Assembly (NCBI GenBank): GCA_029717555.1 | Contig: JAMDHS010000020.1 | Coordinates: 186,001 to 250,000 of the forward strand | Source: Peribolospora baueri | Taxonomy: Eukaryota | DNA: 64,000 nucleotides | Direction of reading: 5' to 3' | In this document: piece after piece, positions 15,901-58,887 of the stretch | Position numbering within the stretch: the stretch's first letter is position 1 | Layout: the number at the start of each line of letters is the position of its first letter | The notes under the pieces: model-generated | The model's database searches: none | The model's input: the letters and a program-made list of their open reading frames with translations, nothing else | Told to the model about the DNA's origin: nothing | Position numbers and translations under genes: made by a program

Positions 15901-16292
15901 GAGTAAAACGGGTTCAGATGTATTGGTATTTCCCGTGAGCCTTCTCCGCAGGAGCGGTCGCAGGACGCCGTACTCTAGCAAGGACGAAATGCGCCCCCTG
16001 CGTGATGAGGCGACAGTCGCAAACGGCCTCGTCTGGGCAGCCAGATTTAATAGCCTGTGCGCCCAGCTAACTCACCCTTGCGTTCTTTATTTCTTTTCCT
16101 GCCTCTTTCATCCCCATCGAAGAGCGCCTTGAACCTCTGATCAACGACGATCTTGGTGTCATCCTTCTTCGGCTTCAAAAACCTAGGATCGGTGTGCAGC
16201 CTCGCGAAACGAGGGTCGGCCACACGTGGAGCATGCTGCTTTGCCTTAGCCTTCGCACCCCCTTTGGAACCATCTCCTCTTTTCTCCGCCAT
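12968..16292 (-). CDS. ESF1: Pre-rRNA processing protein Esf1 (NUC153 domain)
   Basis: DPRFARLHTDPRF, VDRYGR, TNRIAAVNMDWD, VYPSEFGKERM, LRTYQLERLR|YFYA, FFDLSYVP, and C-terminal DARFAAL..HQFAIDPSNPQ. Confidence 0.95.
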
Positions 16293-16529
16293 GGCGAAGC
16301 GGTCGTGTGTGCGACAAGGAGGTGGTCGAAGGGAAAGAGGGAACGACAGAGAAGGACGAAGACGACCAGCCCGTCTTCTCAGCGGTGTGCATGAGCGCCT
16401 GAAAGCTTGCGGCGTGTGGGAGCCAAGTACATGAAGGTCACGTGCATCCGCCGTAATGCGCACGAGCCCCCTCAATGCACCTCGCCTTCCTCCTCCATTC
16501 CCTTTAATACTCCGACCCGTTCTCCCTCC

Positions 16530-17445
16530 ATGTCCTACTACTTCGTCATCGTCGGTACCCTCGACAACCCGCTGTACGAGCTTTTCCTACCCTCCAAATC
16601 AGCAGCCGCTGCAGCGGCAGCAGGCGACCGAAGCTCTTCCTCCTCGTCTTTCTTCTCATCTTCCAGCAACCCTGTCGCCCTATCCACGCCTCCGCGAGGG
16701 TCCGCTGCGGATGTGTTCGGGGACGGGGCAGGGGGAGAGCGCAATTACCGTGGATCGGGTGGGAGCAGTGTGTTTGGCCTGGGCGGTGCGTTTGGGGCTC
16801 TGGGGCTCGGAGGAGGCGGCGGCGCAGGCGGAACAGGCTCGATAGGAGCCTTGACAGGCGGCGCTCACGCCGGATCCGGATTGGGGATAGGAAAGTACAC
16901 GGATCGACACGTCATGCAGATCGTGGCACATAGCAGCTTGGACGTAGTCGAGGAGGTGCAGTTCTTGAATGGAGCCATGTACCACAAGACGCTTGATCGC
17001 GTAGGCGAGTGGGTCGTGTCCGCCTTCATCACACCTAACAGTGAGTCGCCGTGGTCTATCCCAGATGGCTGCTAGCGAGGCTCGCCTTTTTCGCTGCCCC
17101 CTAAGGTCGTTGTGTATGCTCTCCGGATTGTCACTCTACTTCAGACGTCAAGTTTATTATCCTCCACGAGACGAAAAACGACGACGGCATTCGCCATTTC
17201 TTTACAGACGTGTGGGAGACATTTGTAAAAGTGCGTCTTTCCCCTCGTGTCATGAGGACGCTTCTGTCTTAGCTTTCTCGGTTGTTCTCTGTATCATTCA
17301 CATTTGACTGGTCCGCTCCCGGCGCTCAATTTTTTTTGCCTCCCCTACACAGACCCTCATGAACCCCTTCCACTCGCTCAACGACCCCATCCAATCAACA
17401 ACTTTTGATGCGAGAGTGCGGGCAAGCGCCAAGAAGAATCTATAA
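16530..17445 (+). CDS. TRS20: TRAPP complex subunit Trs20 / sedlin
   Basis: MSYYFVIVGTLDNPLYE, HSSLDVVEE, KFIILHE..NDDGIRHFF, MNPFH and FDARVRASAKKNL*. Two introns. Confidence 0.93.
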
Positions 17446-20511: not shown

Positions 20512-23500
20512 ATGGCGGCCTCTCTCACTTCCGCAGGTGAGCAAAAGGCTCGAATGGTTTTGTTTTGATATATCGCTGACGCTCTACTGATGTCCTTCTG
20601 TGTCTACCACCGTGGCCGAGCAGCCGGCGTCATCGCCCTACTGGACGAGGACGAACCAGAACTTCGGGCGTATGCGTTGCAGACGCTCAATTCCATCGTG
20701 GATTTGTTCTGGGCGGAGATCTCGGACTCGGTTTCGAAGATGTGAGCTCTCTACCGTCTTTTTTCTGGGACTCGAGAACGTACTGACGAGCAAATCCTTC
20801 ATTTCTTCTTGTGGCGACCTTCAGCGAAGTCCTGTACGAGGACCCCAGGTTCCCGAACCGCGAGCTGGCCGCCCTCGTTGCTTCCAAGGTCTACTTTTAT
20901 CTCGGCGAGTTTGACGAGGCTCTGGCGTTTGCTCTCGGCGCTGGATCGTTGTTCGACATCTCCAAGCACGATGAATACGTTGAGACGGTCATTTGTGAGT
21001 GCAACTTTTTTACACGCGAGAAGGCCCCTTCGCTGTTATGCTTGAACCGTATTCATAAGGATTCCTGCACTGCTTCTCTTTTCTTATGCAGCCAAAGCCA
21101 TTGAGAAGTACATCGCGCTTCGCTCCTCCCCGACTTCAGAGACTCCCATCGACCCACGTCTCAAGTCGATTGTCGACCAGATGTTTAGTCGCTGCATCGC
21201 CGACAAGGAGTATCGGCAGGCGCTCGGCATTGCGCTAGAGGCGAGACAACTGGAGGTGGTTGAAGAGATTTTCAATGTTACGAAAGATCGAGCCCTCTTG
21301 CAGTACACCCTTGACGCGGTCATGACGGTAGTGCAGAGCTTAGACTTGCGAAACGAGGTGCGTTGTCCTAGAAGCGTAAGTGACGGTCTATTCTTTACTC
21401 ATCTGTTTTTATTGCGTGTCTTCCATCTTCACAGGCTTTGCACCTGCTCGTCAGGTTATTCCAAGCCCTGCCTTCTCCAGATCATTTCTCCATCTCGCAA
21501 TGCTTCGTCTACCTCAACTCCCCCTCTCTCGCCTCTCAGCTGCTTCTCGACCTTGTCTCGAAGCCGTCTCCTCCAGAGCCCTCTGCTTCTGACTCGCTCC
21601 TCATCGCATATCAACTGGCCTTCGACTTTGCCGAGAGTGCCACGCAAGAGTTCTTGGAGAACATGAGGGAGCAGCTGGGGGGAAAGAAGAAGGCCAGGGA
21701 AGAGAGTGAGGAAGTTGAAGTTGAGGACGCCAACCCGGTCAATGGAGAGGTAGGTTCGTTCCCACGTAAGGCAGCTAGTAGTCTGTTCGCTCATGTCGCA
21801 TCGCATTGAAATTCGACAGACGTCCACAAAGGATCATATTGAACGGATACGAAGCATCCTCTCTGGCGAGGAGACTATCCGACTGTATTTAGAGTTCCTG
21901 TTCCGCAACAATCATGCTGACTTGCTGATCCTCAAGAACACCAAGGACGCCCTCGATGCTCGCAATTCGCTCTATCACTCCGCCGTGACTTTCGCCAATG
22001 CGTTCATGCATGCCGGCACCACTTCGGACAAGTTCCTCCGGGAGAGCCTCGGTTGGCTCGCGAAGGCCAGCAACTGGTCCAAGTTCTCCGCTACCGCCGC
22101 CTTGGGCGTCATTCACAAGGGACACTTGGCCCTGGGTCGACAGATCTTGGAACCCTACCTGCCGCAAGAAGGCATCACCGGCAGTGTGTACTCTGAAGGT
22201 GGAAGTTTGTTCGCGCTCGGTCTCATCCATGCCAACCACGGACAGGGTGTACAGGAGTACCTGAAGAATGCGCTCAAGAACAACCAGAATGAGACGCTTC
22301 AGCACGGTGCAGCTCTGGGACTCGCTGTCGCAAGCATGGCTACCGGAAATGAGGGTGAGTGCTAAATGGTTGCTCGTGTATGGGCGGGAAGGGTCCTCAC
22401 CTGTCGTCTGTTCATCGCTGACGGTGCACAGAAATCTACGAGGAGCTCCGCACTGTCCTCTACTCCGACTCTGCGATCGCCGGTGAGGCGGCGGGCTACG
22501 CCATGGGACTCGTGATGCTGGGCACGGCTTCGGAGAAGGCGTTGGATGAGATGCTACAGTACGCGCATGAGACTCAGCACGAGAAAATCATCCGCGGTCT
22601 CGCTATGGGTATCGCTATGCTCATGTACGGTTGCGAGGAGAAGGCCGATGGACTGATCGACACGCTCATGGGCGACAAAGTATGTCACGGATTGCACAGC
22701 TCTTAACGTTCTCTACCGATTGCTTATTCCGCATCTACTTTTGTTCTCTCCAGGATCCCATTCTTCGCTACGGAGGCATCTATACCGTTGCCATGGCTTA
22801 CGCTGGATCTGGTAACAACAAGGCCATTCGGCGACTCCTCCACGTCGCAGTGTCCGATGTCAGCGATGACGTCCGTCGCGCAGCTGTCACCGCCGTTGGC
22901 TTCCTGCTCTTCCGCAATCCCACTCAGGTGCCACGGATTGTCCAGCTGTTGAGCGAGAGCTACAATCCCCACGTCCGGTACGGTGCTACGCTTGCGCTAG
23001 GCATCGCTTGCGCCGGGACAGGTCTGGACGTGAGTCTCGTTTTCTTAGATAAGGCAACGAGTACGCTGCTGTTTCTAACTCTCCTTCCCTCCCACTCTCC
23101 CCACTTGCAGGAGGCAATTGATCTTCTGGAGCCCATGACTAAGGACCCTGTTGACTTCGTGCGGCAAGGCGCGTTCATCTCGCTCGCGATGATCCTCATC
23201 CAGCAGAACGAAGTTCAGAACCCACGGGTGTCGACTGTGCGCAGCCTCTACGCCAAGGTCGTGGCTGAGAAGCATGAGGAGACGATGGCCAGGTTCGGTG
23301 CTGCACTCGCCCAGGGTATCATCGACGCCGGAGGCCGCAACGTGACGATAGGTTTACAAGCGAAGAATGGCAGTGCCAACATGAGTGCCATCGTGGGCAT
23401 GGCCATGTTCACCCAGTTTTGGTACTGGTTCCCGCTCGCCCACTTCGCCAGTCTTGCCTTCACGCCTACTGCCATCATCGGCGTCAACCGGGACTTGAAG

Positions 23501-24409
23501 GTGAGTCTCATGGCGCTTCCTTGCGTCTTTGAGCTGGCTAATGGATACGAGCTGATGCGAACGCCGCATGTGTTACGTTTTCTACAGATCCCTGAATTTG
23601 AGTTCATATCCAAGGCCAAACCATCGATGTTCGCCTACCCACCACCCGTCAAGCCTCCAACGAAGGAGACGGTGGAGAAGGTGGCGACTGCCGTGCTTTC
23701 CACGACGGCCAAGGCACAGGCCCGGCAGAGGGTCAAAGAACGAGAAAAGGCGGAGAAAGAAGGCGAATTGATGGACACGGACGAGAAAGTTGGTGAGAAG
23801 TCAGAAAAGATGGATGATGCTATGAAGACGGACGAGCCTGAAGGGTCAGGCATCGCTAGCGCGGAGAAGGAGAAGGAGGGCAGGGAGGGCAAGGAGAAGA
23901 AGCGACGGGCGGCGGAGCCGTCGTTTGAGAAGGTGCCCAACCTATCTAGGGTCACCCCGGCTCAGCTCGAGTACGTCAGTTTCCCTCCCGACTCCCGCTA
24001 CCTCCCCGTTCGACCAGTCGCACCAGCCATCTCTGGCACCGCCGCCCCGAGCGGCGCAGCTACGCCTGCTCCGGGTACGTGGACTCCGAGCGCCGCTGGT
24101 AAGGGCAAGGCGCAGACGACCTCGCTCGCCTCCGCTCCGCCCCCTTCGACCGTCGCGTCCTCCCCAGCCGCAGCCGGCCGCGGGGGTGGGATCTTGGTCC
24201 TGGTCGATCAGACACCCGGGGAACCTGCCAAGTTCCTCGAGCTCAAGGCCGGCGAGGACACGGCAGCGGCGCCCGCCCCCGTGGCAGAAAGCACGGGCAC
24301 ACCCATCCCTGTTGGCGGTGGTAACGCTAGGAGCAACGCGCCGGAACCGGACGTGCCGGAGGCGGAGATGCCAGAGCCGTTTGAGTATCCGTTCGACCAC
24401 GATGTGTAG
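20512..24409 (+). CDS. RPN2: 26S proteasome regulatory subunit Rpn2
   Basis: [43 protein letters not shown] repeats, [17 protein letters not shown] and C-terminal PEPFEY. Confidence 0.97.
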
Positions 24410-24699: not shown

Positions 24700-27588
24700 A
24701 TGGGTCCCGTTAAACGTCGGCTGTCCGTGTCCGCACCGTCGGCTGCGCGCGGCAAACGTTGTCGTACAGGCGGAGGGGCGTCCATGGATTCACATGAGCA
24801 AGCGTCGCCCCTCATCTTCTCCCAAACGACGGCGATCACTCCAACAACATTCGACAGCGTCTTCTCCGACGAGGTCGTCCTGCGCATTTTTGAGCACTTG
24901 CGCGCCACCGATTTGGTCACGGCGCAGATGGTCAACCGGCGTTGGGCGAGGCTCGCCACCGATCAGCAGGTCAGTTAGAAGGCGCTCCCTCGCCGTCGCC
25001 CTCGCGCATGCGCTCATCTTTCTATACTACCTCTTCTTATTGCTATTTGTTGCAAGCAGTTATGGAAAAAGCTCTTCCTGCGCAAATTTGTGTATCCCTA
25101 CTTGCATGCCAAGCACATGCCCACGCTTGCCGGGCTCAACTCCCTCCTAGGTCGATCTGCAGCCCTTTCCAACCGCGCCATCGCTGGTCTGCCTAGGAGA
25201 TATCAGCGACAACATCATATCAAGCCTTTTTATGACGAGGAGGCGCTTTTGAGGGGGAGGGCACTCAGGCGGCGCACCGATCGCGGAGCTCGGAATGGGG
25301 AGCAGGTTTCCGCCGAGTCCGACGCTGATGAAGAGTTGGACGAGGAGGAGGTAAGGCATGACGGTCTGCACTGGAAGAGCCTTTACAAGGTGAGATTTCC
25401 CCATATGCTTTGAGAATACGTCCAGAGAATTCTTACACGTTTCCCATTTTCCCCCGATCTCAGGTCTCAACGAACTGGCAGAAGGGGAACGTCGCCGTTT
25501 CCGAGTTGTACCCGAAACAGCTGCGGCCACAACCTCGATGGCGACAGATGATGAGCACATCTGAGGAGTCTTCGTCCGAAGCCGAATCCTCTCCTGGCCC
25601 GTCCACTTCTCTCGCCCATCGACCTCATGGGACGCCCCATCCCGCTGAAGACGTGGGATCCCATCGGCCGGACACCATCGTACAAGCTTCGTCGCGCTTC
25701 ATTTTTGTCGCCACTCGTTCGACGCCGCCGGGTGCGCCTCCCAGCCGTAACCCTAGCGTGCAAGTATTCCGAGCTCAATTCGCAGAAGCTATCGGCAGCC
25801 TTGTCTCCAATACGGTCGCGTCTTCAGTTTCCGCGACTGTGACTATATCCGATATTCGCATAGACGCCGCCATTTCGACTCCCAAATGGAGCTCTGGTAC
25901 CTTATCAACCATCGCGGAGGAGAGAGGCAAGGGCAAGGCGAAAGCTACCGAAGTTCAAGCTGAGGACGACTCCGATCTACGTTTGGCCGTGAGCTACTCG
26001 ACAGGTCACATCTCCATCTTCAAGCTTGCTTTCTCCAGCACAGGACAAGATGTTATTCCGTCCATGCACTACGAGGAAGAGGCTGTGTTTCATCCATCCG
26101 TTGGACGCCACGGCTCGTCGACGACAATAATGTCCGCTTTCCATTCGCCTCTGCTCGTGACGTGTAGCGAGGATTTCTCCATGTCGATCTTTCGACTGCG
26201 TTCGCTCGCCGACGCCGAGGATAGCCTTTCTTCAAGGACAGTGATTGAGCTAGTCCGCGATATGCGGAGTTTTACAAGCTGGTGGCCCGCCTGCCTTTCG
26301 TTGTGCCCGATCCCGGTGCGGAGCGTTCCGAAGCGTCGACGAGGTTCGAGCGCCGCACCCTCTCGATCTCGCTCTCGCTCTTCATCGCGAAGCCGTCAAC
26401 GTTCGACTCTTCATCTCATCACCCACCGCGCTCGTCAGCGGTTCCCCTTGGTCGCGCCGTCCGCTCCCTCGCAAACGTCGATGTCTGCTGATCCCGGGCC
26501 AGCTGGGGCTCGTTCACATGCAAGCAGGGTCGGAGCTGTCGCTTCGGGGTGCGCTTTCAGACTGTCCATCGCCTTCTCGACACCCTTGTACCCCTCTTCC
26601 TGGACGGTAGGGCTACAAGAACTCGTCATCCGTATCCCGTCAGACGATGTACAGGATTGGTCTCCAACCATCTCTAGCCGGCACGCCACTGCCGTCCAAA
26701 GCTTCTTTCACACGCCCATAGACAATATCGGACGGCGCTTGTTTAAGGGCAGGCCCGAGTTCTTCAAGGCGCCACCTTTGCCCTGGCGCACTGAAAGGAG
26801 GTATCAAGGCACTCGTGACTTGCTGGCCGAGAGAACAGGAAACAGGGTCACCTCTGTGTCCTACGATGACCCATTCATTGTTCTGGCTCGCGAGGACAAT
26901 CTGCTCGAGGTGAGTTTGCTTCACCAAGATGAAGCGATTCGACGACATTATGTGCGACTGACACGAAGATTTCCAACTCTAGGTCTACGAGGTCAGCGGC
27001 ACTACGAAAGAGGTTTTCTTGTCTGCCTCTCATCGTAGCTCGCGACCATCAACGGCTACAACGACGCCTTCGACCGGCTCTCAGCTGCGTTTGACACATC
27101 GCAAACTACTCCACGGGCACACGGGTGCCGTCGACTGCGTGGCGATGGAAGAGGGGCGGTGCGTGAGCGGAGGCGCGGACGGCTGTCTGATGGTATGGGA
27201 TCTGAGCGAGCGACAGAATGCCGATCAGGAGGAGGAGGAAGACGAGGAGGAGAGAAGACGCTGGCGCGCACCGAGCCTCAGCGTATTTGAGGAGGAGGAA
27301 GAAGACCGACGGGCGGCGGAGAGGTCTGACGACGTCCGACACGTCGTAACCCTTAGAACTCCGACGAATGTCAGCGGTGGCGAGCTCGCCGGCGCCGCAG
27401 GGGACGTGAGTGGGCCACCGAGCCTGCGCGACTTGTTCCGCCACGACGACAAACCGCAACGCGTGCGATGGTTGCAAACTGGCTTCGACAAGATCGTCAG
27501 CGTCTCTTCCGATCGCACCGATTACAGCCCGGGCCAGGATGGGAAGCCGGCCAGGGAATATGTGCACGTGTGGAGTTTCGCCAGTTGA
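24700..27588 (+). CDS. F-box protein with C-terminal WD40-like repeats
   Basis: F-box FDSVFSDEVVLRIFEHL..MVNRRWARLATDQQ|LWKKLF, then HWKSLYK|VSTNWQKG. WD repeat LHGHTGAVDCV..CVSGGADG.LMVWDL. Ends VHVWSFAS*. Confidence 0.8.
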
Positions 27589-29102: not shown

Positions 29103-31500
29103 TCAGGTCGGGCGGAGGGCAAAGTCGTTTTCGGCCGTGGGCACGGAGAGGATGCGGAGGCTGGCGGGGCATGACAAAAAAGCGAAGAGGGTGAGTGAGA
29201 CGACGAGGACAAAAAAAAAAGAAAGCTCGGATCGACGCTCACGTGTTGGTGTGACCCAGGCCGCCCTTCCAGCCCTGAACAGCAATCACGGTGGCGCCCT
29301 TCTTGACGATGCCGAGCTTGAGCGCCTCGGCAAGGCCAAAGCGGATTCGGTTGTCCACGTCGGTCTGCCAGCCCTCGTTGTTGTCCGGTCTCGGTTCGTT
29401 GTAGAAGAGCGGGTAGCAGCCGCGGTGGAGGTGGGTGACGCGCGCGACTGCCCTGTTGCGCGTCACAACGAGGATCGGGCAGCTCGGCCGGTACTTGCTC
29501 ACCATGCGGGCCGTGTTGCCGGACGTGGACATAAGCAGGATCGCGCCGGCGTTCTGCTCCAGTGACGCGGACACGGCCGCCATGGCGATCGTCTCCGTCG
29601 TCTCGGTGGGGACCGGAGCGAGGCTGCGCAGCTCGTTGTAGTTGGCCGTATAGGCGATGCTTTGCTCGGCCAGGTATGCGGTCTCGGCCATCATCGTCAC
29701 CGCCTCGGTCGGGTAGGCGCCCTTGGCCGTCTCACCGGAGAGCATCACGCAGTCGGCGCCGTCCAGGACGGCGTTGGCCACATCGGACACCTCGGCGCGC
29801 GTCGGGCGGTTGTTGTGGATCATCGACTCGAGCATCTGGGTGGCGCAGATGACCGGCTTGCCGGCGATGTTGCTTTGCGTGGAGGGGAAAGGGGAGCGTT
29901 CCAAAGGCTTGTCAGCACTCGAGGAAACGAATCGAGAGGACTATCGAGCCGCTCGAAGGGATCACAAAGACAAAAGATACGTCGGCAGATCGCCCCCTCG
30001 GGGAAACGATCCGGTAATAGGGAACAAAGACGAATCCTCTCCGTCAACGGGCCGGCTCCGACCGACCGCCCTCCACAACCGACTCACCACTTGGCAATCA
30101 TCATCTTCTGCGCCATGAACACCTGGCTGGCGGGGATCTCGATGCCAAGGTCGCCCCTGGCGACCATGATCCCGTCGGACTCTTTGAGGATCTCGTCAAA
30201 GTTGTACACGCCCTGGTGGTTCTCGATCTTGGAGATGATGCGGATGTGGGCGCCCTTCTCGCCGAGGATGGAGCGGATGGTGCGGACATCGTCGCCGCGA
30301 CGGATGAAGGAGGCAAAGATCATGTCCACGTTCTGCTCCACACCAAAGAGCAGATCCTGCCTGTCCTTCTCCGAGATGGCGGGCAGGTCGACGTCAGTGA
30401 GAGGCAAGTTGACGCCTTTCTTGGACGAGAGCACGCCGTTGTTGGCGCACCGCACGCGGACCATCGTGTCGGACTCGACGGCCAGAACCTCGAGGGACTG
30501 TCAGGGAGGAAAGAAGGGGAGCGATGATGAGGCGATCATCGACGAGGGGGAAGAAAAAAGGAAGAGAGGACGCACGAGAATGCCGTCATCGACGTAAATG
30601 ACGCGACCGGGCTCGACCTTCTTGGGCAGGTTCTTGTAGTCGACGTAGAGGTGCTTGTCGTCGGAAGCCTGAGCGTACTTGTCGTCGGTGGTGACGTAAA
30701 ACTCGTGGCCGATCTTGACGGGGATCTGCAGGGGAAGGGGAGCGGAGAGATGAGCGCGGACTCTTACACGGTCCTCCCTGGAGGGGCACTCACATCCTTG
30801 CCATCGACGATCATACCCGTTCGCATCTCCGGACCCTTGGTGTCAAGAGCGATGGCGAGAGGGCGGCCCTGGGGAGCATCTGGCGAGCCGAGTCGAAACG
30901 TGACATGACAGAGGCAGGCAGGCGACGAAAGGAAAAAAAAAGATATGGCGAGGTCGCAAAGGCGAAAAGACAGACCGAACGTGAGTCGGACGGTTGTCGA
31001 AGAAAGCCGAACGAGCAAAAAAAAAAAGAAGGAAAAAAGGAGAAAGAGGAAGCAAAGTCAGACCTCTCAACTTGATTCGCTTGGCCGCACGCTGCCCCTC
31101 GTCCTCCGCGCCGTTAGCGGACGAAGAGGGAGGAGCGTCGGCGTCGGCGTAGGAGACGGGCTCACCGGCCACGACCTTGTGGGCGTTATCGACGACGGAC
31201 TTGAAGTACTCGTGCGAGCCGTGGGAGCAATTGATGCGAACGATGTTCATACCCGCCTTGCGGAGGGCGGCCATGGACTCGACACTGTTGGTCTTGGGGC
31301 CGATGGTGGCGATGATCGAGCTGCAAGGCGGGGGGGATATAATATTTAAATGAGCGCGACGTCGTACGAGATCGGTTGGGAGGCTCTAGAGCGAGAGGTT
31401 GTACGCACGTCTTGCGGAGGAACTTGTTGTTCATGTCGTGGTCGAGCGGGTTGAGCGTGGCGAGCCACTCGAGCTGGGACTTCGCGTTTGTGGTGATCAT
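29103..31500 (-). CDS. PYK1: Pyruvate kinase
   Basis: [69 protein letters not shown]. Last exon [18 protein letters not shown] follows intron ~29161-29242. Confidence 0.98.
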
Positions 31501-36000: not shown

Positions 36001-36306
36001 GGATAGATGGCGAGGATAGCGCAATAACCATGGGAGGCACTCACCTTGGTCATAACCAAACTGAGGGCCGAAAAACAACGAGCGGGTAGCAAGTTGGGGT
36101 CAGTTCCTCTGGCGCGACTTGCCAAACCGCTCTCTTCGCACGCGCTAGTGCAGCCACCACTAGAGTACCTGAAGATGACGGCCACTCACCAGGAACACTC
36201 CCAAGCTAGCAAAGCAGGAGATGAAGTAAAGCAGGTAGTTGCCGCGCAGGCCTAGCTTGGCCAAGGGCGAGGCTGCTACCTTTACCCTCGTCGGTTGGTG
36301 ATCCAT
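33064..36306 (-). CDS. MFS sugar porter family transporter; many introns, micro-exons
   Basis: FGYDQGVMSG is built from a 16-nt exon (36045-36060) and a 12-nt exon (35945-35956). Also DILGRR, PIYQSEISP, WRIPL, PESPRWL, WGPIPWL.PPEI and ETKGVPLEEMDELF. Final intron 33083-33173 gives YEPLRGGEDD*. Confidence 0.93.
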
Positions 36307-37049
36307 GGCGGGCGCGGAAGGAGAACTATAGTGATGGAGGGGACGGTGGTGCTCGTTGTCGTCGTCTTGACGGTGAGCCGGGCTATACAGATCACGTCAG
36401 GGAGAAGGGCGTGGGCGTCGTCGTTGCTCGATCACAGGGAAAAGGGGGGTGCGAGCGCGGGGTCGTAAGAGGGCGAGTAGAGGTGAGAAAAGAGAGCACA
36501 TGCAAACAACTGGTCGCCCGTCGTCCGTTCACTGCTGTCCCGGCCGCCTTGCTGTTCCCTAGATCCGGTATCGGGATTATGAGAGGTACAACAGCTCTTT
36601 TTGTCCGCCGGCGTGGTTGCTGGCCGGGAAGGACGAGCGTGATAGATCGCCGACGCGAAGGCGGCGCCGGGAGGGAGGCAGAGGGAGGGTATTGTACGTG
36701 CGGGGCCGGCGTGGTCAACCTGGAGTGCGTTGAGAAGAGAAGTCGTCTCCGAGGGGTAAGAGAGGAGATGGAGAAGGATGGAACGGAATGGGAATGGGAA
36801 TGCGTTCACTCCTCCGGCTCGGTCACCCGACTGCCCAAGCGGGGAAAGCGGAGGTGGGCGCGGCTACTGTGCTGCGGCAGATCACGGGCGCGCGCCATTT
36901 GAACGATTATCCCTCCGCAGCCCACTTCAATTGCCGTCGTCATGGGGCGTCGGACTCAATAAAGGTCCATAGAGTACACGCTCTTCGATAGTACGTACGG
37001 TTTACGCATAGTCCGGCGCATACGCATACCTTTCCCTGCGCGACAGGCG

Positions 37050-37079
37050 GTGGGAAATCGGGGCGTCGCTCATTCCCAC
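37050..37079. promoter_or_regulatory. Head-to-head pair of CSL-type elements (GTGGGAA-N16-TTCCCAC)
   Basis: GTGGGAA at 37050-37056 and TTCCCAC at 37073-37079, ~185 bp upstream of the CSL gene ATG. Confidence 0.55.
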
Positions 37080-37263
37080 CATCGAACCTCCTTCGTCCCC
37101 ACGACCCGCAACACCGCCAACCCACAACGCAAGGCCGCGCCGGCGACCACTTGTTCTCGCGTCGGCCATCGCGGTCCGTCGTTCGCCGTTCGCCGGCGGC
37201 AGCGGATCTAGCCAGCTTGAGTCCAAATACACACGTTTCCCAGTGAGCGCGGCTGAACAGACG

Positions 37264-40200
37264 ATGGCGTCGCCATCCGACGGGGAAGTTGCCGCCGTCG
37301 CCAAAGCCGCTCTTGGAGCACAGGGAGAAGAACAAGGCCGACAAAGCACGGTCGACGATCGGCAGGAGCATCCCCATTCTTCCCCTGGCGTCCAGGATGG
37401 TCACGATGGCCGTCATCCCGAGCAGCACCTCGCCGCCGAAGTGGGCGGTGAGGTGGGAGAAGGGCAGGCGGTCACTTCTGCAGAGGAGCACCAGCAAGAG
37501 GAAGAAGACATGGGGCTGAGTGATGATGAGCGAGCCAGAGCGGCGGCCGCGGCGGCGGTCGCAGCTGCTGCCACTGGTGGAGAGGAGTCGTCCTCTCTTC
37601 AAGCAGCCGACACGTCGTCTCCTCTCGGTTCGAGCAGCGCGTTAACCATACCCACCTCCGGCTCTGAGGCGGTGTCGGACGACGAAAACGCCCAGCACAA
37701 CCTCGCCGTGCTCCTCAACGCCATCGAACAGCCCGGCCTCGCCGCCGCCGCCGCCGCTGCCGCCGCCTCTAACGGGGTGCCGACTTCAGCAGCAGCCAAT
37801 CAGCCCGGCCACCCTATTCCGTCGTCCGAACCTCCCAGCTTCAATATTCAGTCTCTCCTCGCTGCTTCGCAGCATCTTGCCTCCCCCCCTGACGATGGCT
37901 CCGTTCGATCAGCCAGTCAGCAGGCCAGCGCCGCTTCTGCCGCCGCTGTCTTCTCGCGTCTGGACCAAGCGGCTCTGGCTCGTGTTCTCGTCGAGGCGCA
38001 TGCTCGCTCTATCGCTGCTGCCGCCGCCGCCGCCGCCGCCAGCGCCGGTCAGTCGCCATCGCCGGGTCCGTCGATGGGAAAGAAGCGTAAATGGGCCGAT
38101 TTACCGTCGGACGACCGTCGTTCAAAAATTAGGCGTACCGTGCGCGACCACCTTGCCATCACCGGTCATGGCGGTGGCTATCTCTCCCCCACCTCCATCA
38201 CGTCTTATACGCAGCAGTCGCGTTCGTCCATGACCACAGTGTCCTGCCTGCATGCATCCGTCGCTCAGAAATCTTACGGCTCCGAGAAGCGCTTCCTCTG
38301 TCCTCCGCCGGTGGTGCGAATCACTGGCCCTCTTCGCCACTATCCTTCTCCATCCTCGGCCATGACGGCCAGCGAAGACGACTGTCCGATCAGCATGGCA
38401 GTCGTCAACGACATGGGCGACCGGTCCGCGGAGCAGAAAAGCGCTTTGGATGAAGCCATGCAGGCGCGCTTCAAATATCTCCACGTCGGAGGCACCGCCA
38501 AGGCGAAGCAGTTCAGGCTGCAGCTCAACTTGCTCAAGCCGCCAGAGCCGGAGCAGCACCGTCAAGATCATCCTCACGCCTTGTCTCAGCTACCCGACGT
38601 TGGCGGTCACCACTTCAGCTCGTCCGGCGAGGATCACTCTGACCCCTCTCACGGTCATCATCAGGACGACGTGAACGGCGACGAGGCTGCAGCTGCTGCC
38701 GCGGTTGCTGCCGTGGCTGCTCAGATAGCTCAGAGTCAGCCTCAGTCCGGTGATGGGTCGGCTGGCCATTCGTCGTCCTCCGGTCCTCCCGCCCTCTCTC
38801 GCTCGCAACCTTGGGCCTCCTTCGAATCAGCTCCGATCACCATCATCTCCAAACCCTCCAAAAAGACGGCCAAGACGCGCAACGCGTCGTCATACATCCT
38901 CTCCGGGTCTCTTGTCAGCCTCTTCAACCGCATCAACAGCCAGACTGTTCGCACGAAGTACATGTGCGTCGAGGACGGCCGGCTGTGCGCTCGCAACAGC
39001 AGTTGGAGCGCCTTTCGCATCACCCAGATCGGCAAGCCTTCGCCTCCTGGGCCCCATGGCGCCGGCGGAGGCATTATGGCTTTGGGCACCGGCGACAACC
39101 AACCCATCACGTACGGCAGCATTGTCGTGCTCACCGATTCGGTCACCGGCGTCAGCAGCGACCCGCTTGTCGTTTGCAAGGTAGACAAGGGCAAGATCAG
39201 CCTACCTCAGCTCCAGCCGACACCACCTGCCGAGCAGACGGGAGACGTGCAGGGGCACCAGGAGGAGCACGCACAGCATGAGACGGAAGAGGAACATCGA
39301 CCAGCAGACGACGTGCAGCATGGACAGGAGCCGAACTCCGGACTTCCTACGGATCCTCAGCTTCGAGCGATGGCCGAAGCGGCCGTCGCGGCTGCAGCGG
39401 CCGCGCAGCAGCAGCAGCAGAAGGAGGTGCTTCAGGACGGGATGAAGAACGAGGTCGAAGGCGCGGAGCAATCATCGAACGACCTTTCGTCCATGGCGGC
39501 CGACGCGGAGCGCGCTGCTGCTGCCGCAGCTGCCGCGCAAGCGTTCTCCGCGCTCAGTGCAAACACTGACGTGGGCGCGTCTGCCGGCGGTCCCGCATCA
39601 TCATCTGCGTCAGCTCCCGCGCAGCAACCTCCCGCAAAGTTGACGGTGACCGAGGACGCGAACGCGTACGGCCCTGTGGCGCAGATGCAAAAGGTGGCCC
39701 TCTTGCGCTACATCCCGGACATTAATCCGGACGGCTCGTCCTCGTCCTTCTTTCGCGTTTCCGAAGGCGGCATTCCCAAGCCCTTGCTCACGGGGCAGAG
39801 GACATATCTATGCGCAACAGTGTTCGAGCGATGGCGCGATGGCGGAACGTCCGAGATGGATCCAGGCGATCTCTCTCCAGCGTTGACTTACCCAGCCGGT
39901 CCACCGCCCCATCCCGGCTCTGGTAGCGTTCCTTCTGCCAGCGCAACTGCCGCATTTGCCGCCAGCGCCCTCGCCGCCGCGCCTGGTCCGAGCGAGATGA
40001 TGGGAGGCTTGCATCAGGAGCATCAACACCAGCAGTCACAGCAGGGACAAGGTCACAGCGGCAACGGTTACGAAACGCCGTCTATGCCGCAGACAGGAAG
40101 CGAGGGCGGAAGGAGCCGCGGTGGCCATCACCGGGCGGCCGCTCACCCGCCCACGAGTGTCTTGAGCTTCGCGCCGCCGAGGACGGAGCGGATCACGAGG

Positions 40201-41419
40201 GAGGATGGGAGCACCATTGAACAGGACAGCGTGGAAGATATATATTGTTGGAGCGTCGTGGGCATTTGTGAGTGCTTGTCGTCTTTGTTGCGTCTTGTAT
40301 TCCGGTTCTCAAGTTGTTATGAGCTCACTCTTTTCTTTTCTTTTCTTTCTTTTCGGTGACCGCTCGACAGCATCGTTCGAATACACTTTTTTCGAGGCCG
40401 CGCCCACCTCGACATCTTCGGCGGGTACCGACGTAGAAGACGAGAACGCCCTCCCGCCTCCTACTCTCCCCATAACGCCTTTCCCCATATTTACCGCGCC
40501 GCCGTACTACAACCTTCGCTCGCACACCCTCGAGCTCAAGGTGCAAAACTACTACTACGCCCTCCCTCCCGAGCATGTCGGCGATGGCATCGGCCAGCAA
40601 AGAAATTCGACTATGGTCCCGCTCGAAGTTTGGCTCGGGCCGCTCGGGCCGCTGGAGACTAAGGTGCAAAACGACGCGCAAAAGACGGGAGAGGCGCTGC
40701 TGACGGTGCAGATGCCCAAGATTCCGGAGATCCTTAAGGCGCTCGACGAAGAGAAGGTGGAGGAGGACCGCGGCCATCACCCACACCAGCTCGGACAGGA
40801 TGGTCGGTCCGCATCCGTTAACCCGGCTTTGCAGACGAGCGCCACCGCCGCCGATGAGAGCGATGTGTCTCGCGGCGATGGGTCAGGCGAGGCGACGACA
40901 AACCGGGGGGGCGAGGGCGTGTCACCTGCTGAGGCTGTTGCCATTGCCGCCGCCGCCATCCGTGGCTCGGATGTGGCCGTGGACGGAGGGTCGGGTGGTG
41001 TGCCGGGTACGCAGAACGCAAGCCTGGACGAGACGCACAATTACCTCGAGGAACCCTCTTCTCCAACGCAGGACCACCATCAGCAGCAGCAACACGCCGC
41101 CGCTGGAGAACATGGGCAGGGCTCGTCGGAACCAGGAGCAGAAGACCATGAGCGCGCGCCCTCATCCTCGTCACCTGCGCCTCCCCCCGCTCCGGTCCCG
41201 GTCCCGCAAACGAAAACGCTCCCGATCCTCTTCATCCGGGGCCTTGACGGCTGCGGGTACCACACGGGCCGGTACGTCGCGGCAGACGACCTGATCGCCC
41301 TCGTTGGAGCTGCGGGCAGCGCGAGCGCTGCGAACGCGCTCAGGAATTTGGGCGTGGGCATCGGCGGGCCGAACGGGTTTGGAGGGACCACTGGCGCTTG
41401 GAGCTTGAGGGTTGTTTGA
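37264..41419 (+). CDS. CSL (CBF1/Su(H)/LAG-1) family transcription factor, fungal type
   Basis: LAG1-DNA-binding motif HASVAQKSYGSEKRFLCPPP, ISKPSKKT, and beta-trefoil LFNRINSQTVRTKYM..SWSAF. Intron 40268-40370 joins WSVVGI|SSFEYTFF. C-terminal LPILFIR..G.GY. Long Ala/Gln/His low-complexity inserts. Confidence 0.93.
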
Positions 41420-41737
41420 ATGCGCGCGAGGCGATGCGAAGCGGCAGTCAATTTTTTCTCCTTTTTTTTCTTTTTTTTTTTTTTCCTTCCTCCTACTTTC
41501 TTCCTTCTTCCGTTGTTACTTTGCGTTCCTCCTCTGGCTGGCCTATGTTCTCTCCGTTCCATGCATGCATGCTATGTGCTGTCGAAGGGCTTTTCCTACA
41601 AAGTAACGAACGTACTGGCTGTCGCACCTCGAAGTGATCTGGAGGTTAGGGTTAGCGCGATCCAAGTGGATGATGCTTCCCTTCCGCTTCTCTCGCGTGC
41701 CCCAGACTGAACGCTTAAGGACGCAGAGGGACGCATC

Positions 41738-45647: not shown

Positions 45648-45894
45648 CTTGGATCGTGACAAAGGTCAAATGAGATGGAGGTGCAGAGCTAAGCAAGTCG
45701 ATCCTTCGTTCCCGCCGGGCTGTTTAGGAGTTCCGACCGCACTGACGCCTGGACAGCGCGCCCCCATCACTCGCCGCAGCCAGTACACGTGATGTCAAAT
45801 ACTACCGCAGCACTCCTAACCCTACCTGACCAGAGTGAGTTGCCGGCTTTCTTCCTGGTGAGCACCGCTCAAGACAACACCGGGCATCCTCGCC

Positions 45895-46758
45895 ATGTCA
45901 CTCCCAGGCTTGCTTCTCCCCGTCTCCCGGACGACCTGCTCCTGCGCCCGAAGCGGGGGCCAAGTCCGGAAGCAGGTCCATAAGCAGGCCCTTCGCTCGT
46001 TTTTCGCCAGCACAGTCTCATTTCGGGACGTCGTCGCACCCGGGTCGTCCCCCGGCCAGCAGGACGTGCTGAACGATACTTTCAAGACGATTGGGGAGAT
46101 TACCCGTCTGACAGCCGAGGAAGAAGCTGGAGATGCGTCTAGTTTCTCTGCGCCGTTGGCTTCAGCGGAGCCTGCCGCGCCAGAAGCCGCGGCGTCGACC
46201 CCGTCACCAAGCGACCCGACAGCCCACCCGTCCTCTTCGCCCTCCTCTCCGACCTCTTCCTTCGCCGCCATGTTCGGCAATCGGTTATCGCCACAGGACG
46301 TTCCGACCACTGGCTACGCTCATTTCGCACCCCCACCGCGCAATGACCCGTTGCTAAGTTTCATGACCAACCTGATCATGAAGAGCGGCAAGAAGGCGCG
46401 CGCAGAGCATTACCTCGGCTCGGCGCTCGCCGAAATCCGCCTACGCACCAACTCGGACCCTCTCCCCCTTGTCCGTCGCGCCGTGGAGATGGCAAGCCCG
46501 CTTGTGCGCATGACCACCTTGCGCACGGGGGCCAAGTCCATCCCCACGCCGTCCCCACTGACGGACAGGCAGAGGACGCGGCAAGCGATCACGTGGATCC
46601 TCGAGGCCAGCAATAAGCGCAACGAGGGGCGCTTCCACGTCCGTCTTGCTCAGGAGCTCATCGCCGTCGTCAATGGTGCTAGTTCCGTGTTGGCCAAGAA
46701 GGAGGAGGTACACCGCATGGCTTTCAACAACAGGGCCAACGCTTCCGTGAGGGTGTGA
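45895..46758 (+). CDS. RSM7: Mitochondrial ribosomal protein uS7m
   Basis: Presequence-like N-terminus. S7 core: MTNLIMKSGKKARA..P.PL..RQR.RQAITWIL..KKEEVHRMAFNNRAN. Intronless. Confidence 0.92.
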   Translation: MSLPGLLLPVSRTTCSCARSGGQVRKQVHKQALRSFFASTVSFRDVVAPGSSPGQQDVLNDTFKTIGEITRLTAEEEAGDASSFSAPLASAEPAAPEAAASTPSPSDPTAHPSSSPSSPTSSFAAMFGNRLSPQDVPTTGYAHFAPPPRNDPLLSFMTNLIMKSGKKARAEHYLGSALAEIRLRTNSDPLPLVRRAVEMASPLVRMTTLRTGAKSIPTPSPLTDRQRTRQAITWILEASNKRNEGRFHVRLAQELIAVVNGASSVLAKKEEVHRMAFNNRANASVRV

Positions 46759-52242: not shown

Positions 52243-53707
<1,465 letters not shown>

Positions 53708-53888: not shown

Positions 53889-56592
53889 ATGTGCCCCGCG
53901 GCCCTCTCTCGTTGCTGCTCCGCTTCGGCGCCTTTTCGCCCCGCCCACGTCCGCGGAGTGGCTCGACTCGCCGCGCACGCCGAGGCCGGGAAGAAGGTCC
54001 TCTCCCCCTCGGCAGGCGCTGTGCGAGCGAGAGCAGACGTATGTATCGCTTCCTGTCCGTATTTCCGGCCTCTGTTTGCAAAATATGGTGTTACAGAACG
54101 TCCCGGTGCTCATTGACCGCCGTTTCCATGCTTTGCTCCTCGTTGCCATGCTCGTCAGGCTCCACGGCGCTCTATCTCCAGCAACGCAGCCAAAGAGGCG
54201 GCGGAGGAGCAGAGGGTAAGTCGGTGGGCTCGAGGTATAGGCGTTCGTGCCCCGTCGTACAAGCCTTCCTCATGCTGTTTGTATTCATGCGTCCTCTCAG
54301 AATCTCATCCTTGAGATCCTCCTCTCCAAGCCCTCCCTACGCGACTCTCGCTCCTACCTCGCCTCATTCGCCCCTCGTCCCCCAGACGACCGTCGTTCGC
54401 GCTCCCGCCTCCGTGACCGCGACTTTTTCGATGCTAACGTCCTCGCTCGCGACAAGGACCGGACGGCCGTATATGGAGAGGAGACGGGTCTGGAGGGCGT
54501 TTTGAGCGCGACTGGGGGTTTGGCAACTGACCCCGCGTTGAACGACTCGCACGCTGCGCCTTCCGAATCGGTCAAGCTAAGCTCCAGAGAACATGTGGAG
54601 GAGCTGCTACAGCCTCCCATTCAGTCTCACACCGGCCTCGTCAAGATTCAAGGGCCGTTTACCGATCGTCAGCTGGCTAGTATCGCGGAAGGAATGGTGT
54701 ACCTGAAGAAGCTTGGACTGGTCAGCGTCATCGTCGTTGACTCCGAGCAGTGGCCTCGGCGCGGCTCGACCCAGGAGGTCTGTGCTGGAGACCATGGGGA
54801 TGGGGGTGAGAGGAAGAGGAAGACGCTGAGGGAGCAGATGGTAGACGAGACGTATCGGATCGTTGACATGCTCGAGGCCAAGGGAGGAAACGCACGTCCG
54901 ATGATGGAGTCGGTCGTCAGACTATCCTCCGCTTGCGAGGACGACGGTGCGGTCATTGACGACCTCAAACTCCTTCGATATGCTCTGGCAAACGATCAGA
55001 TACCCGTCATACCCCCGTTCGCCGTGGACGCGTCTCTGCAAAGCGTGTGCGTGTCAGCGGACGATGTCATGGTCGCTCTGTCGCGGGGGCTTTGCGAAGC
55101 GGGCAGGCGAGAGTCGGAGGAGAAGGAGCGTCGACGTTCGGGTTGGGTGGACAACAACGCTCAGGCGTCGACCGTTGCACCTTCCATCGACCTTACGCCG
55201 GTGCGCCTGATGATCATCAACCGCGAAGGTGGCATTCCGGCCCACTCTCGAGGCGGCAACCCACATCTGTCGATCAATCTCCGGTCCGAGTACGACCACA
55301 TCCTGCGCACCTTCCTCTGGCAGGACAGCCACCCCACTTCGCTCTCCAACCTCTGTCTCGCGCGTGACTGCCTGGAACACATGCCGCGCACTAGCAGCGG
55401 CGTGATTGTGAGCCACCGGTCGCCGAAGAGCCTGATTGGCAACCTGATCACCAACAAAGCGGCGCATTCGCCTAGCCTGCCTCAAGCCCTGCTCTCCATC
55501 GACGACCCACCACCGTCGTCGTCCTCTGCCGACGGCGGTCTGAACGAGACATCTCCGGCCGTCGCCGAATCGACGAGCACGTCTCCATCTGCCGCCGTCG
55601 CTTCGGCCGCCTCTTCCCCGCTCGTTGGCACGTTGTCACCGTCGTCATTCACCGGCGCACTGACCGGAAGGTCATCCTCTCTGCGACACATACCGACGAT
55701 GATCCGACACGGTCTCCCGGTCCGTGTGATCCGCGACTTTTCCGCGCTCGATTTCGAAAAGCTGACCACGCTCCTTGAGACCTCTTTCCGACGGCGGCTC
55801 GACCGCGAGGCTTATTACGCGCGCCTGGAGAGGGACATTGATTTTGTCATCGTAGCGGGGGACGAGTACGAGGGCGCGGCTATCGTTACCTCAGAGAGAG
55901 GCCGCGCCGAGGAGGGGGGGGAGATGGCGGAGGAGCCGCTCGCTTATTTGGACAAGTTCGCCGTGTTGCCCAGCTTGCAGGGCGACGGTACCGTTGATTT
56001 CCTGTGGGGCGCTTTGCGAGAGTGAGTAGCGGGCGCGCGGACGCTCTTCGTCTTTTTCTTTTTCTTTATCGCCGCGTCGGTAGAAAGGCGGCAGTCCGGG
56101 GCGTGCGCTCGGTCGGATGGACTTTGGGTCGCTCAATATGGGGGAGGATTGGTTTGGACGCTGACGAGCGCATTTACATTCTTCCCAATGCCGCGCGTGC
56201 CCCTTGCCTCGCCGCCCCCCAGCGAATCCTTCGGTCTCGGTCTCCAAGACGCGCTGAACGACAATGGCGGTCTGGGTGGTCTAGGCAAAGGCCGGGATCT
56301 GGTGTGGAAGTCGCGTTCGGAGAACCCGGTGAACCGGTGGTACTGGGAGCGGAGCTCCGGCTTCGTGCGCATACATACCGATCGGGAGAGGGAGAGGAGG
56401 GGGGAGAAGCCGGGGTGGTCGATGTTCTGGTGCGACGCCGAGGATAGGATCGCCAGGATGGTCGGGGAGAGGAGGGGAGGAGAAGGCGACCAACGGCTGA
56501 CGGGCGGCCTTCCCGTCGTGGCTGAGGAGGAGCACGGCAGGCTGGAGCGGTGGGCGAGGGTGTTGAGCGGCATCCCTTCCGCCTGGAAATAG
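53889..56592 (+). CDS. ARG2: Mitochondrial N-acetylglutamate synthase (amino-acid acetyltransferase)
   Basis: Presequence exons. PSLRDSRSYLASF, LVKIQGPFTDRQL, MIINREGGIP..RGG.PHLSINL, LIGNLITNK, YLDKFAVLPSLQGDG.VDFLW, WKSRSENPVNRWYWERSSG and IPSAWK*. Confidence 0.93.
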
Positions 56593-57808: not shown

Positions 57809-58887
57809 TCAATGGTGACGACGCTTGGCGAAACCCTTGGGAGGGCGGGGGAGGCGACGGCGGCTGTTGTAGGAGGGGGGAGCGTCGCAGGCGGCGGTAG
57901 CCTCTGTTGCGGGGACGGCAGAGGAGGGCACGGCGGCGGAGACGGTCGGGGAGACGGAGGCGGCCGCGGGGGCTACGGAGGCCGGGTAGGAAACCGCGGC
58001 CGGCGAGGAGACCGCGGCTGGGGAGGAAACTGAGACCGGGGAAGCAGGGTCGGCGGAACCGGCGGAACCGGCCGTGTTGGCGCCGGGGAAGTCGACGTCG
58101 ACGCACTGGTAGAAGGCGTCACCCGTGTCGGCGATGTTCCAGATGCCCAGGATGACTGCGGGGGAGAAGGAAGGAAAACGGAGGAGGGTCAGAAGGGTGA
58201 AAGTGGATGGAGGGCGGCTTGCCAGACTGACCGTGGTAGCCGGACCGGTTGGGGAGGTTCTGAACGGGGTGCGTCTCCGTGGTGCCCGGGTGGGTACCGT
58301 TCATGGGGATGGTCATGAACGGCGTCGACACAAAGTCGGTCGGGTCCATGGGGTCCGTCTTCGTAGAGTCCCAGTCGGGCCTGGTGATGTAGTACTCAAA
58401 GTCGATCGATGAGTGCATGGCGGTGAAGGACCAGTTGATGGCGGTGAGCGCGTTGGTGCCGGTGTTGGAGTGCGGCCAGCGCGTAGGCGATTGTTGGTCG
58501 AGGTCGGCGAAGCGGCCGACCGAGGCTGAGCACAGCTGCTTGCTACCGTTCTGGAAGAGGCCCTTTGGCCCCTCCTCGCTCTGTGGCTCGTACCTGGGAG
58601 GGGGAGGGTGTGCGCAGGTAAGCAAGCTGTCGGCGCCCATCCATCCACTCATCATGACACACTCACTGGATCTCGCCGCAATTCTGAGCCTTGCCGTCCT
58701 TGCACCACCCGGCGCGGCTCGGGGGGTTAGTGATCCAACCGTGAGCGGAAACTGATGAGAAAGATGGGATGCAGACCGGTCAGGATGGGGGCGGATGTGG
58801 GAGGTCGTCGTGCTCTTGCTCACCAGAAGTTGCGCCAAGGGCGACAAAAGCGAGAGCGGCAGACGAGAGAGCGTTCCAGGCCTTCAT
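57809..58887 (-). CDS. Secreted AA10 lytic polysaccharide monooxygenase (CBP21/GbpA-like, probably chitin-active), 285 aa
   Basis: Exons 58887-58824, 58751-58667, 58593-58232 and 58155-57809. Signal peptide ..GATSVSA is followed by His1 HGWITNPPSRA. Also QYEPQSEEGPKG, LDQQSPTRW, FTAMH (second His), YYITRPDW and HVILGIWNIADTGDAFYQCVDV. Confidence 0.95.

Follow-up and report, generated by a model that had tools for sequence, protein, structure and literature searches.

A putative head-to-head CSL site pair with Su(H)-paired-site geometry upstream of a fungal CSL gene

CSL proteins (CBF1/Su(H)/LAG-1) are known almost wholly as the nuclear end of Notch signaling, and the role they had before Notch has yet to be settled. 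Among the groups that lack Notch, only fungi have CSL proteins (PMC1973085). We describe a 64,000-nucleotide stretch of genomic DNA from Peribolospora baueri (contig JAMDHS010000020.1, positions 186,001 to 250,000 of the forward strand; hereafter ‘the window’, with coordinates counted from its first letter), in which a CSL gene is preceded by a perfect inverted repeat whose two arms each contain the CSL heptamer GTGGGAA. On balance, we interpret this repeat as a putative pair of CSL-family sites that would give auto- or cross-regulation of the Cbf11-like gene next to it. The motifs, their geometry and rarity, the identity of the gene and the conservation of its DNA-contact residues are shown directly, whereas protein binding at the pair and an effect on transcription are inferred.

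The paired element and its chance expectation

An earlier note on this DNA, made from its letters alone, had pointed to two head-to-head GTGGGAA motifs, 16 bp apart, upstream of the CSL start codon at 37264. We confirmed the pair and its spacing, and the exact distance from the end of the right arm to the CSL ATG is 184 bp. The element is composed of:

37049-37056, plus strand: left arm GGTGGGAA, with the CSL heptamer GTGGGAA at 37050-37056 and G at position 1
37057-37072, unstranded: spacer ATCGGGGCGTCGCTCA, 16 nt, read from the sequence
37073-37080, minus strand: right arm TTCCCACC, which is GGTGGGAA on the minus strand, with GTGGGAA at 37073-37079

A repeat search returned the arms as an 8-nt inverted pair, 100% complementary and head-to-head with 16 nt between them, and as one of six inverted pairs reported within 36300-37270; the inverted stem stops at 8 bp. 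The spacer holds GGGGCGTCG, a second copy of which lies at 36944-36952, a 9-mer repeat of the kind expected by chance.

The arrangement resembles that of the metazoan Su(H) paired site (SPS) of E(spl)/Hes genes in orientation, in the 16-bp spacer and in the way the spacer is counted. Printed examples include a synthetic SPS (CGTGGGAA-15 nt-TTCCCACG) and the E(spl)m8 SPS (TGTGAGAA-17 nt-TTCCCACG) (PMC7213981); the spacer is given as 15-17 bp (PMC8494340), and all four mouse Notch intracellular domains strongly prefer 16 bp, with little tolerance (PMC7685452). The window element has two GTG(G/A)GAA motifs, one on each strand, that read 5'-GTGGGAA...TTCCCAC-3' across a spacer of 16 bp, the reported optimum, so that the likeness to an SPS drawn in the earlier note agrees with the printed sequences in both orientation and spacer. 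The resemblance ends at position 1, where an SPS has C, or a tolerated T, on at least one site, whereas the window element has G on both arms. It ends, too, at the source of cooperativity, which in metazoans lies in ankyrin–ankyrin contacts between two Notch intracellular domains, whereas fungi lack the Notch pathway (PMC1973085). Because SPS cooperativity needs these Notch ankyrin domains, we call the window element SPS-like in geometry, and not an SPS.

Lone CSL heptamers occur in the window at the chance rate. GTGGGAA is found 7 times against 8.50 +/- 2.80 expected (at least 7 in 75 of 100 shuffles), GTGRGAA 18 times against 18.56 +/- 4.15 (at least 18 in 56 of 100 shuffles), and the shorter core TGGGAA 25 times against 30.5. 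Perfect 8-nt inverted repeats are equally ordinary: 37 with spacers of 0-30 nt, against 44.9 +/- 9.3 in 100 Markov-1 simulations, and four with spacers of 15-17 nt, against 4.3 +/- 2.2 in the same number of simulations. The inverted repeat per se was thus dropped as a special structure, since such repeats number as expected in the window. The head-to-head CSL pair, in contrast, is very seldom expected by chance and is statistically non-trivial. GTGGGAA-N10-25-TTCCCAC has one match in the window against a mean of 0.02 (at least one in 2 of 100 shuffles); GTGRGAA-N15-17-TTCYCAC was present in none of 1000 simulated windows, with an analytic expectation of 0.0038 per 64-kb window and 5.7e-5 per 957 bp.

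These 957 bp are the length of the intergenic region between the ATGs of the CSL gene and of a divergent sugar transporter (36307-37263), a divergent promoter that the earlier note had delimited correctly, with the transporter ATG at 36306-36304 and the CSL ATG at 37264. Within it lie five of the 25 TGGGAA cores of the window, namely the two arms and three further NTGGGAA cores that the earlier note had not listed:

36785-36802, plus strand: (GGAATG)x3 tandem repeat, perfect, TRF score 36, carrying two overlapping ATGGGAA (TGGGAA at 36789 and 36795)
37237-37243, minus strand: CTGGGAA core, 21 bp upstream of the CSL ATG

With the promoter taken as given, this cluster has a binomial P of 3e-5, or 4e-4 when the tandem pair is counted once, and a cluster of at least five TGGGAA cores anywhere in the window arose in 2.7% of 1000 simulations.

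These figures bear on the strongest competing account, in which the two heptamers arose by chance in a G+C-rich promoter and have no function. The chance-level density of lone heptamers fits such a coincidence, as do the abundance of short-spacer inverted repeats, the suboptimal base at position 1 of both arms and the fact that the idea arose after the sequence was read. We nonetheless consider coincidence unlikely, given the small expectation of this specific pair in the promoter and its absence from the simulated windows, the three additional TGGGAA cores in the same 957 bp, and the location of the pair beside the window's one gene whose product is predicted to recognize it. A transcription factor gene bearing its own motif is, moreover, a natural prior hypothesis for the window's one CSL gene.

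The CSL gene and its relatives

The gene downstream of the pair spans 37264-41419 and has two exons:

37264-40267, plus strand: CSL exon 1, encoding a disordered N-terminal tail, RHR-N (LAG1-DNAbind) and BTD, with insertions
40268-40370, plus strand: CSL intron, GTGAGT...CAG, 103 nt, whose removal joins the frames of exons 1 and 2 (read by hand)
40371-41419, plus strand: CSL exon 2, with TGA at 41417-41419, giving a predicted protein of ~1349 aa

The long CSL frame has its first ATG at 37264 and holds 1031 residues. Pfam LAG1-DNAbind (PF09271) matches residues 326-541 at E 1.1e-21 and 78.5 bits (cut-off 25), over profile positions 1-151 of 152, and Pfam BTD (PF09270) matches at E 4.5e-06 and 27.2 bits (cut-off 25), over profile positions 4-70 of 123. 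Structure chains of RBP-J, Su(H) and LAG-1 were matched at E 1e-24 to 5e-22 (10 distinct PDB sequences), the best being RBP-J at 1.1e-24. Judged by these domain and structure matches, the gene is a CSL gene, as the earlier note had named it.

The DNA-binding surface is well kept. The block SLFNRINSQTVRTKY of the window CSL aligns to FNRLRSQTVSTRY of RBP-J, and FNRINSQTV corresponds to FNRLRSQTV of RBP-J, with the DNA-contact residues Arg and Gln both kept. Counted on the 422-residue chain 3iag_C, which we take to begin at residue 53 (its length fits), the Arg is mouse R218 and the Gln is mouse Q222 (LAG-1 Q401). The R218H substitution abolishes DNA binding in mouse CSL, and its counterparts R318H and R644H were introduced into Cbf11 and Cbf12, respectively (PMC3598750), while Gln222 reads position 1 of the motif (PMC4176381; on the roles of these residues, see also PMC1973085). 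The residues for sequence-specific binding are all kept in every fungal CSL protein but one (PMC1973085).

The N-terminal tail is disordered, and in Cbf12 such a tail inhibits DNA binding. The protein also has insertions in its conserved domains. About 90 residues interrupt RHR-N (residues ~425-515), and ~150 residues (about 650-800; window 39210-39660) split the conserved BTD halves, as judged by eye in the alignment to the nearest relative, P0002. As regards the C-terminal Rel-like domain (RHR-C), the 348 aa of exon 2 gave no Pfam match at 1e-5; in fungi this domain has only a loose definition (PMC1973085). The alignment to P0002 ends exactly at the end of exon 1, ...VGI. At the other end, 224 aa of P0002 are left unaligned, compared with 221 aa in the window CSL counted from the ATG at 37264. 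An upstream start or exon covering the repeat was also considered and rejected, the frame being open from 37012 but having no ATG before 37264. The ATG at 37264 was kept as the start because there is no earlier in-frame ATG and the N-terminal length of P0002 fits. Directly after the CSL stop codon is a long T- and CT-rich tract (41440-41520), probably a 3' untranslated or terminator region.

A protein-database search with the window CSL returned 337 proteins at E <=0.001 among 8000 candidates, and the following refers to the best 120 of these 337. The best match, P0002, has 41% identity across the whole query region. The top-ranked matches include Ustilaginomycotina (Tilletia, Sporisorium, Ustilago, Moesziomyces, Malassezia): those from Tilletia are 43-44% identical over 48% of the query region, and those of the Ustilago group, ~1068 aa long, align at 35-36% identity. 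Agaricomycetes make up most of the best 120, yet cover only ~19-25% of the query region. Among the matches listed, no protein that bears a name exceeds 44% identity to the window CSL, and three of the 120 carry the source name ‘Transcription factor cbf11’. An RPN2 fragment from the window, similarly, found no database protein above 61% identity. By these comparisons, the source organism is a basidiomycete of uncertain class, without a close relative in the protein database.

Fungal CSL proteins are sorted into classes F1 and F2, and the window CSL looks like class F1 (Cbf11-like). The Ustilago maydis protein UM05862 is labeled class F1 in Table S1 of PMC3155561, and the printed start of its core resembles the window CSL by eye. 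The long BTD insertion is at odds with this otherwise F1-like look, since in the literature a long insertion there marks class F2 proteins.

Proposed self-regulation, possible cooperative binding and competing accounts

In the mechanism we propose, the CSL product, and possibly also a class-F2 paralogue, would recognize both GTGGGAA heptamers in the proximal promoter or leader, and this recognition would place the CSL gene under auto- or cross-regulation. Self-regulation of CSL genes is already known, for cbf12 and lag-1. In Schizosaccharomyces pombe, Cbf11 as well as Cbf12 recognizes the canonical element in vitro (PMC3598750, PMC3516552), and Cbf12 is found at its own promoter by chromatin immunoprecipitation on microarrays (ChIP-chip), its native protein rising >3-fold on ectopic expression, a positive autoregulation (PMC3516552). 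The autoregulation suggested in the earlier note thus has a fungal precedent, a CSL protein at its own promoter, although Cbf12 belongs to class F2 and no site architecture is described for it. A transcription-factor atlas preprint counts Cbf12 among the factors known to autoregulate, the protein itself not being detected there; autoregulation was suggested for 14% of the S. pombe factors investigated. In Caenorhabditis elegans, intron 1 of lag-1 contains 13 clustered LAG-1 sites in 1758 bp, needed for regulated expression (PMC4133882). Like the window locus, lag-1 is a CSL gene with dense NTGGGAA cores at its own locus, GGTGGGAA included; its cluster is bound in vitro. Unlike the window sites, the cluster is intronic and Notch-dependent, and a paired geometry is not reported in the accessible text of PMC4133882.

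Several observations weigh against self-regulation through this pair. The first concerns position 1, where the earlier note's caveat about the flanking G proved valid. Mouse CSL prefers C over T at this position by >8-fold in Kd (0.06 vs 0.50 uM), via Gln222 (PMC4176381), and for Cbf11 the element is given as CGTG(G/A)GAA (PMC11658701); where even T is so costly, both arms of the window element have G. LAG-1, on the other hand, binds ATGGGAA, CTGGGAA and TTGGGAA in vitro, and the wild-type competitor for its 13th predicted site carries GGTGGGAA; wild-type competitors, not mutated ones, competed for binding (PMC4133882). Because G is suboptimal at position 1 and yet the LAG-1 competitor carries GGTGGGAA, the window sites are plausible CSL sites, probably below top affinity. 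Second, two of the five TGGGAA cores overlap within one hexamer repeat and cannot be occupied simultaneously, and the statistics given above apply to a hypothesis framed after the sequence was read. Third, the autoregulation reported in fungi concerns Cbf12, of class F2, whereas the window gene is F1-like; moreover, cbf12 expression was not lowered in a DNA-binding mutant, and the mechanism was called unclear (preprint 10.1101/2023.08.22.554308). Lastly, ChIP-nexus footprints in the same preprint suggest a single Cbf11 site per lipid-gene promoter, and for this reason paired use is not a known habit of class F1.

The direction of regulation would depend on where transcription starts. The region upstream of the CSL gene contains these features:

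36945-37263, plus strand: ATG-free stretch of 319 nt on the sense strand, up to the CSL start codon
36958-36965, plus strand: putative TATA-like element AATAAAGG, in the least G+C-rich part of the promoter (36900-37049)
36991-36998: palindrome GTACGTAC, between the TATA-like element and the paired sites
37003-37010 and 37021-37028: two copies of TACGCATA, also between the TATA-like element and the paired sites

The ATG-free run has a Poisson P of 0.014, and a run of this kind precedes 2.3% of all positions in the window. G+C skew over ~36250-37250 rises to +0.56 in the transporter half and falls to -0.31 in the CSL half; because it changes sign near 36900, C outnumbers G upstream of the ATG of either divergent gene when that gene's own sense strand is read. 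Taken together, the ATG-free run, the skew and the TATA-like element suggest that CSL transcription may start between ~36990 and 37130, and the pair would therefore lie at or just beside the transcription start. A long 5' leader devoid of upstream open reading frames is possible, and it would then take in the paired sites. Activation would be the likelier outcome for sites upstream of the start, given that S. pombe Cbf11 activates transcription, and repression by occlusion the likelier one for sites at the start or beyond it. CSL sites near the core promoter have a precedent (PMC13532661). GTACGTAC and TACGCATA are possible further promoter elements, although repeats this short are often due to chance. 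The putative leader also contains an imperfect (TCGCCGT) repeat at 37169-37195 (~3.9 copies, TRF score 33, 75% matches).

An account that dispenses with CSL altogether would assign the repeat to another factor, either a dimer reading the 8-bp palindromic arms or a TEA/ATTS protein (Tec1/AbaA-type) reading CATTCC, its site being, we assume, CATTCY. The palindrome is indeed one base longer than the CSL heptamer, and the extra base is one that CSL disfavors; four of the 47 CATTCY matches in the window are intergenic (36785, 36791 and 36797 on the minus strand, 37071 on the plus strand), the last overlapping the right arm as CATTCC at 37071-37076. However, CATTCC occurs on one arm only, the left-arm counterpart reading GATTTCC; three of the four come from a single microsatellite, the GGAATG repeat, which yields three CATTCC on its minus strand; and the window as a whole has no excess of CATTCY (47 vs 58.9 expected). 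Another factor would also leave unexplained the exact CSL heptamer match of both arms beside a CSL gene, and we judge it improbable. CreA/Mig1-type (SYGGRG) and Rpn4 PACE-like readings were set aside, as neither consensus fits both arms by eye.

The least probable account, to which we attach very little weight, is an RNA element in which the repeat is transcribed in a long 5' leader and its hairpin dampens translation: the ATG-free 319 nt (P ~0.014-0.023) are as expected of a long leader, the sense strand is C-rich from ~36900 onward and a 51-nt piece forms an 8-bp stem of -18.2 kcal/mol. However, the stem is not extended past 8 bp, and the 51-nt hairpin has a z of only -1.28, with 19 of 200 shuffles matching or bettering it. 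In the 281-nt putative leader (36990-37270), the minimum-energy fold does not pair the arms with one another, and the leader as a whole folds less stably than shuffled versions of itself (z = +1.59), 190 of 200 of which equal or surpass it. No Rfam match was found in 36200-37400 at E up to 1. The earlier note's caveat of a 5' untranslated-region hairpin thus gained no support from shuffles, fold or Rfam.

Beyond self-regulation by two CSL sites stands a separate and more speculative matter, that of why the sites should be spaced as they are. One possibility raised by the exact SPS spacing is that a self-associating cofactor bridges two bound CSL molecules. In metazoans, Su(H) alone or with Hairless fills SPS sites independently, and a cooperativity factor of 16.9 was obtained only for the Notch-CSL-Mastermind complex at the SPS (PMC8494340). 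That the spacing of the window pair reflects cooperative binding in a Notch-less organism is a doubtful proposition. The earlier note had invoked an unnamed fungal partner, for which Mga2, put forward in work of 2024 and 2026 as acting with fission-yeast Cbf11, is a concrete candidate. Cbf11 and Mga2 share DNA sites, and Cbf11 has been proposed as the DNA-binding subunit and Mga2, with IPT and ankyrin repeats, as the activating subunit; their physical interaction was not detected (PMC11658701). Mga2 precursors homodimerize in the endoplasmic reticulum membrane and are released by proteolysis, and the Mga2-Cbf11 relationship has been explicitly likened to Notch-CSL (PMC13532661). As a protein that forms homodimers and works with Cbf11, Mga2 is, speculatively, a candidate bridge: an SPS calls for just such a self-associating ankyrin cofactor across two head-to-head CSL molecules. 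A bridge of this type would make regulation of the CSL gene itself cooperative and switch-like. The known Cbf11-Mga2 sites, at lipid genes such as ole1 and cut6, combine a class-F1 CSL near the core promoter with an ankyrin cofactor released from a membrane, but ChIP-nexus footprints suggest one site per promoter there, whereas the window element is paired and stands before the CSL gene itself. Among fission-yeast CSL papers, paired or head-to-head sites, dimers and cooperativity are not mentioned in the accessible text of PMC4569565 and of the 2023 preprint, nor are dimers in that of PMC3598750 and PMC11658701.

A still broader idea, to which we lend little credence at present, is that the SPS architecture is older than Notch, with head-to-head CSL proteins 16 bp apart bridged by a self-associating, membrane-released ankyrin cofactor. 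On this view, the 16-bp geometry would belong to an assembly of CSL and an ankyrin cofactor, inherited by animals and later taken over by Notch. The Notch-like Cbf11-Mga2 idea could be tested sharply and cheaply on a natural fungal element whose geometry is exactly that of an SPS. Were binding cooperative and spacer-dependent with a cofactor, the dimer-site logic of Notch targets would predate Notch; were it independent only, the CSL gene would be one more self-regulating transcription factor, a common case.

The transporter side and the rest of the window

On the other side of the divergent promoter, the following features were found:

36483-36489, plus strand: GTGAGAA, at chance frequency
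36190-36306, minus strand: sugar/MFS transporter exon 1, with ATG at 36306-36304, followed by a GTGAGT donor
36045-36060, minus strand: apparent transporter micro-exon TTTGGTTATGACCAAG, 16 nt, encoding FGYDQ (FGYDQG motif), between GTGAGT-type introns

GTGAGAA is the third element of the earlier note, which had considered that it might serve to co-regulate the transporter. The motif is present at these coordinates; because it occurs at chance frequency, nothing points to co-regulation of the transporter. The open reading frame piece that follows the micro-exon matches Pfam Sugar_tr at 2.1e-14, and the micro-exon itself would be easily missed by automatic gene finders.

The remainder of the window, which has a G+C content of 59.6% overall, holds these genes:

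1690-4038: P-type ATPase
6210-10337: kelch-repeat protein
14776-16071, minus strand: ESF1
16395-17072: sedlin
21046-24406: RPN2
25362-27035: F-box/pof12-like protein
29242-31385, minus strand: pyruvate kinase
45862-46755: ribosomal S7
52243-52893, minus strand: adenylate kinase
54241-56589: N-acetylglutamate synthase-like NAT
58122-58883, minus strand: LPMO_10 (AA10-type lytic polysaccharide monooxygenase) open reading frame, Pfam E 1.3e-15
60308-62641, minus strand: GT41 glycosyltransferase

The LPMO_10 family is mostly bacterial and uncommon in fungi.

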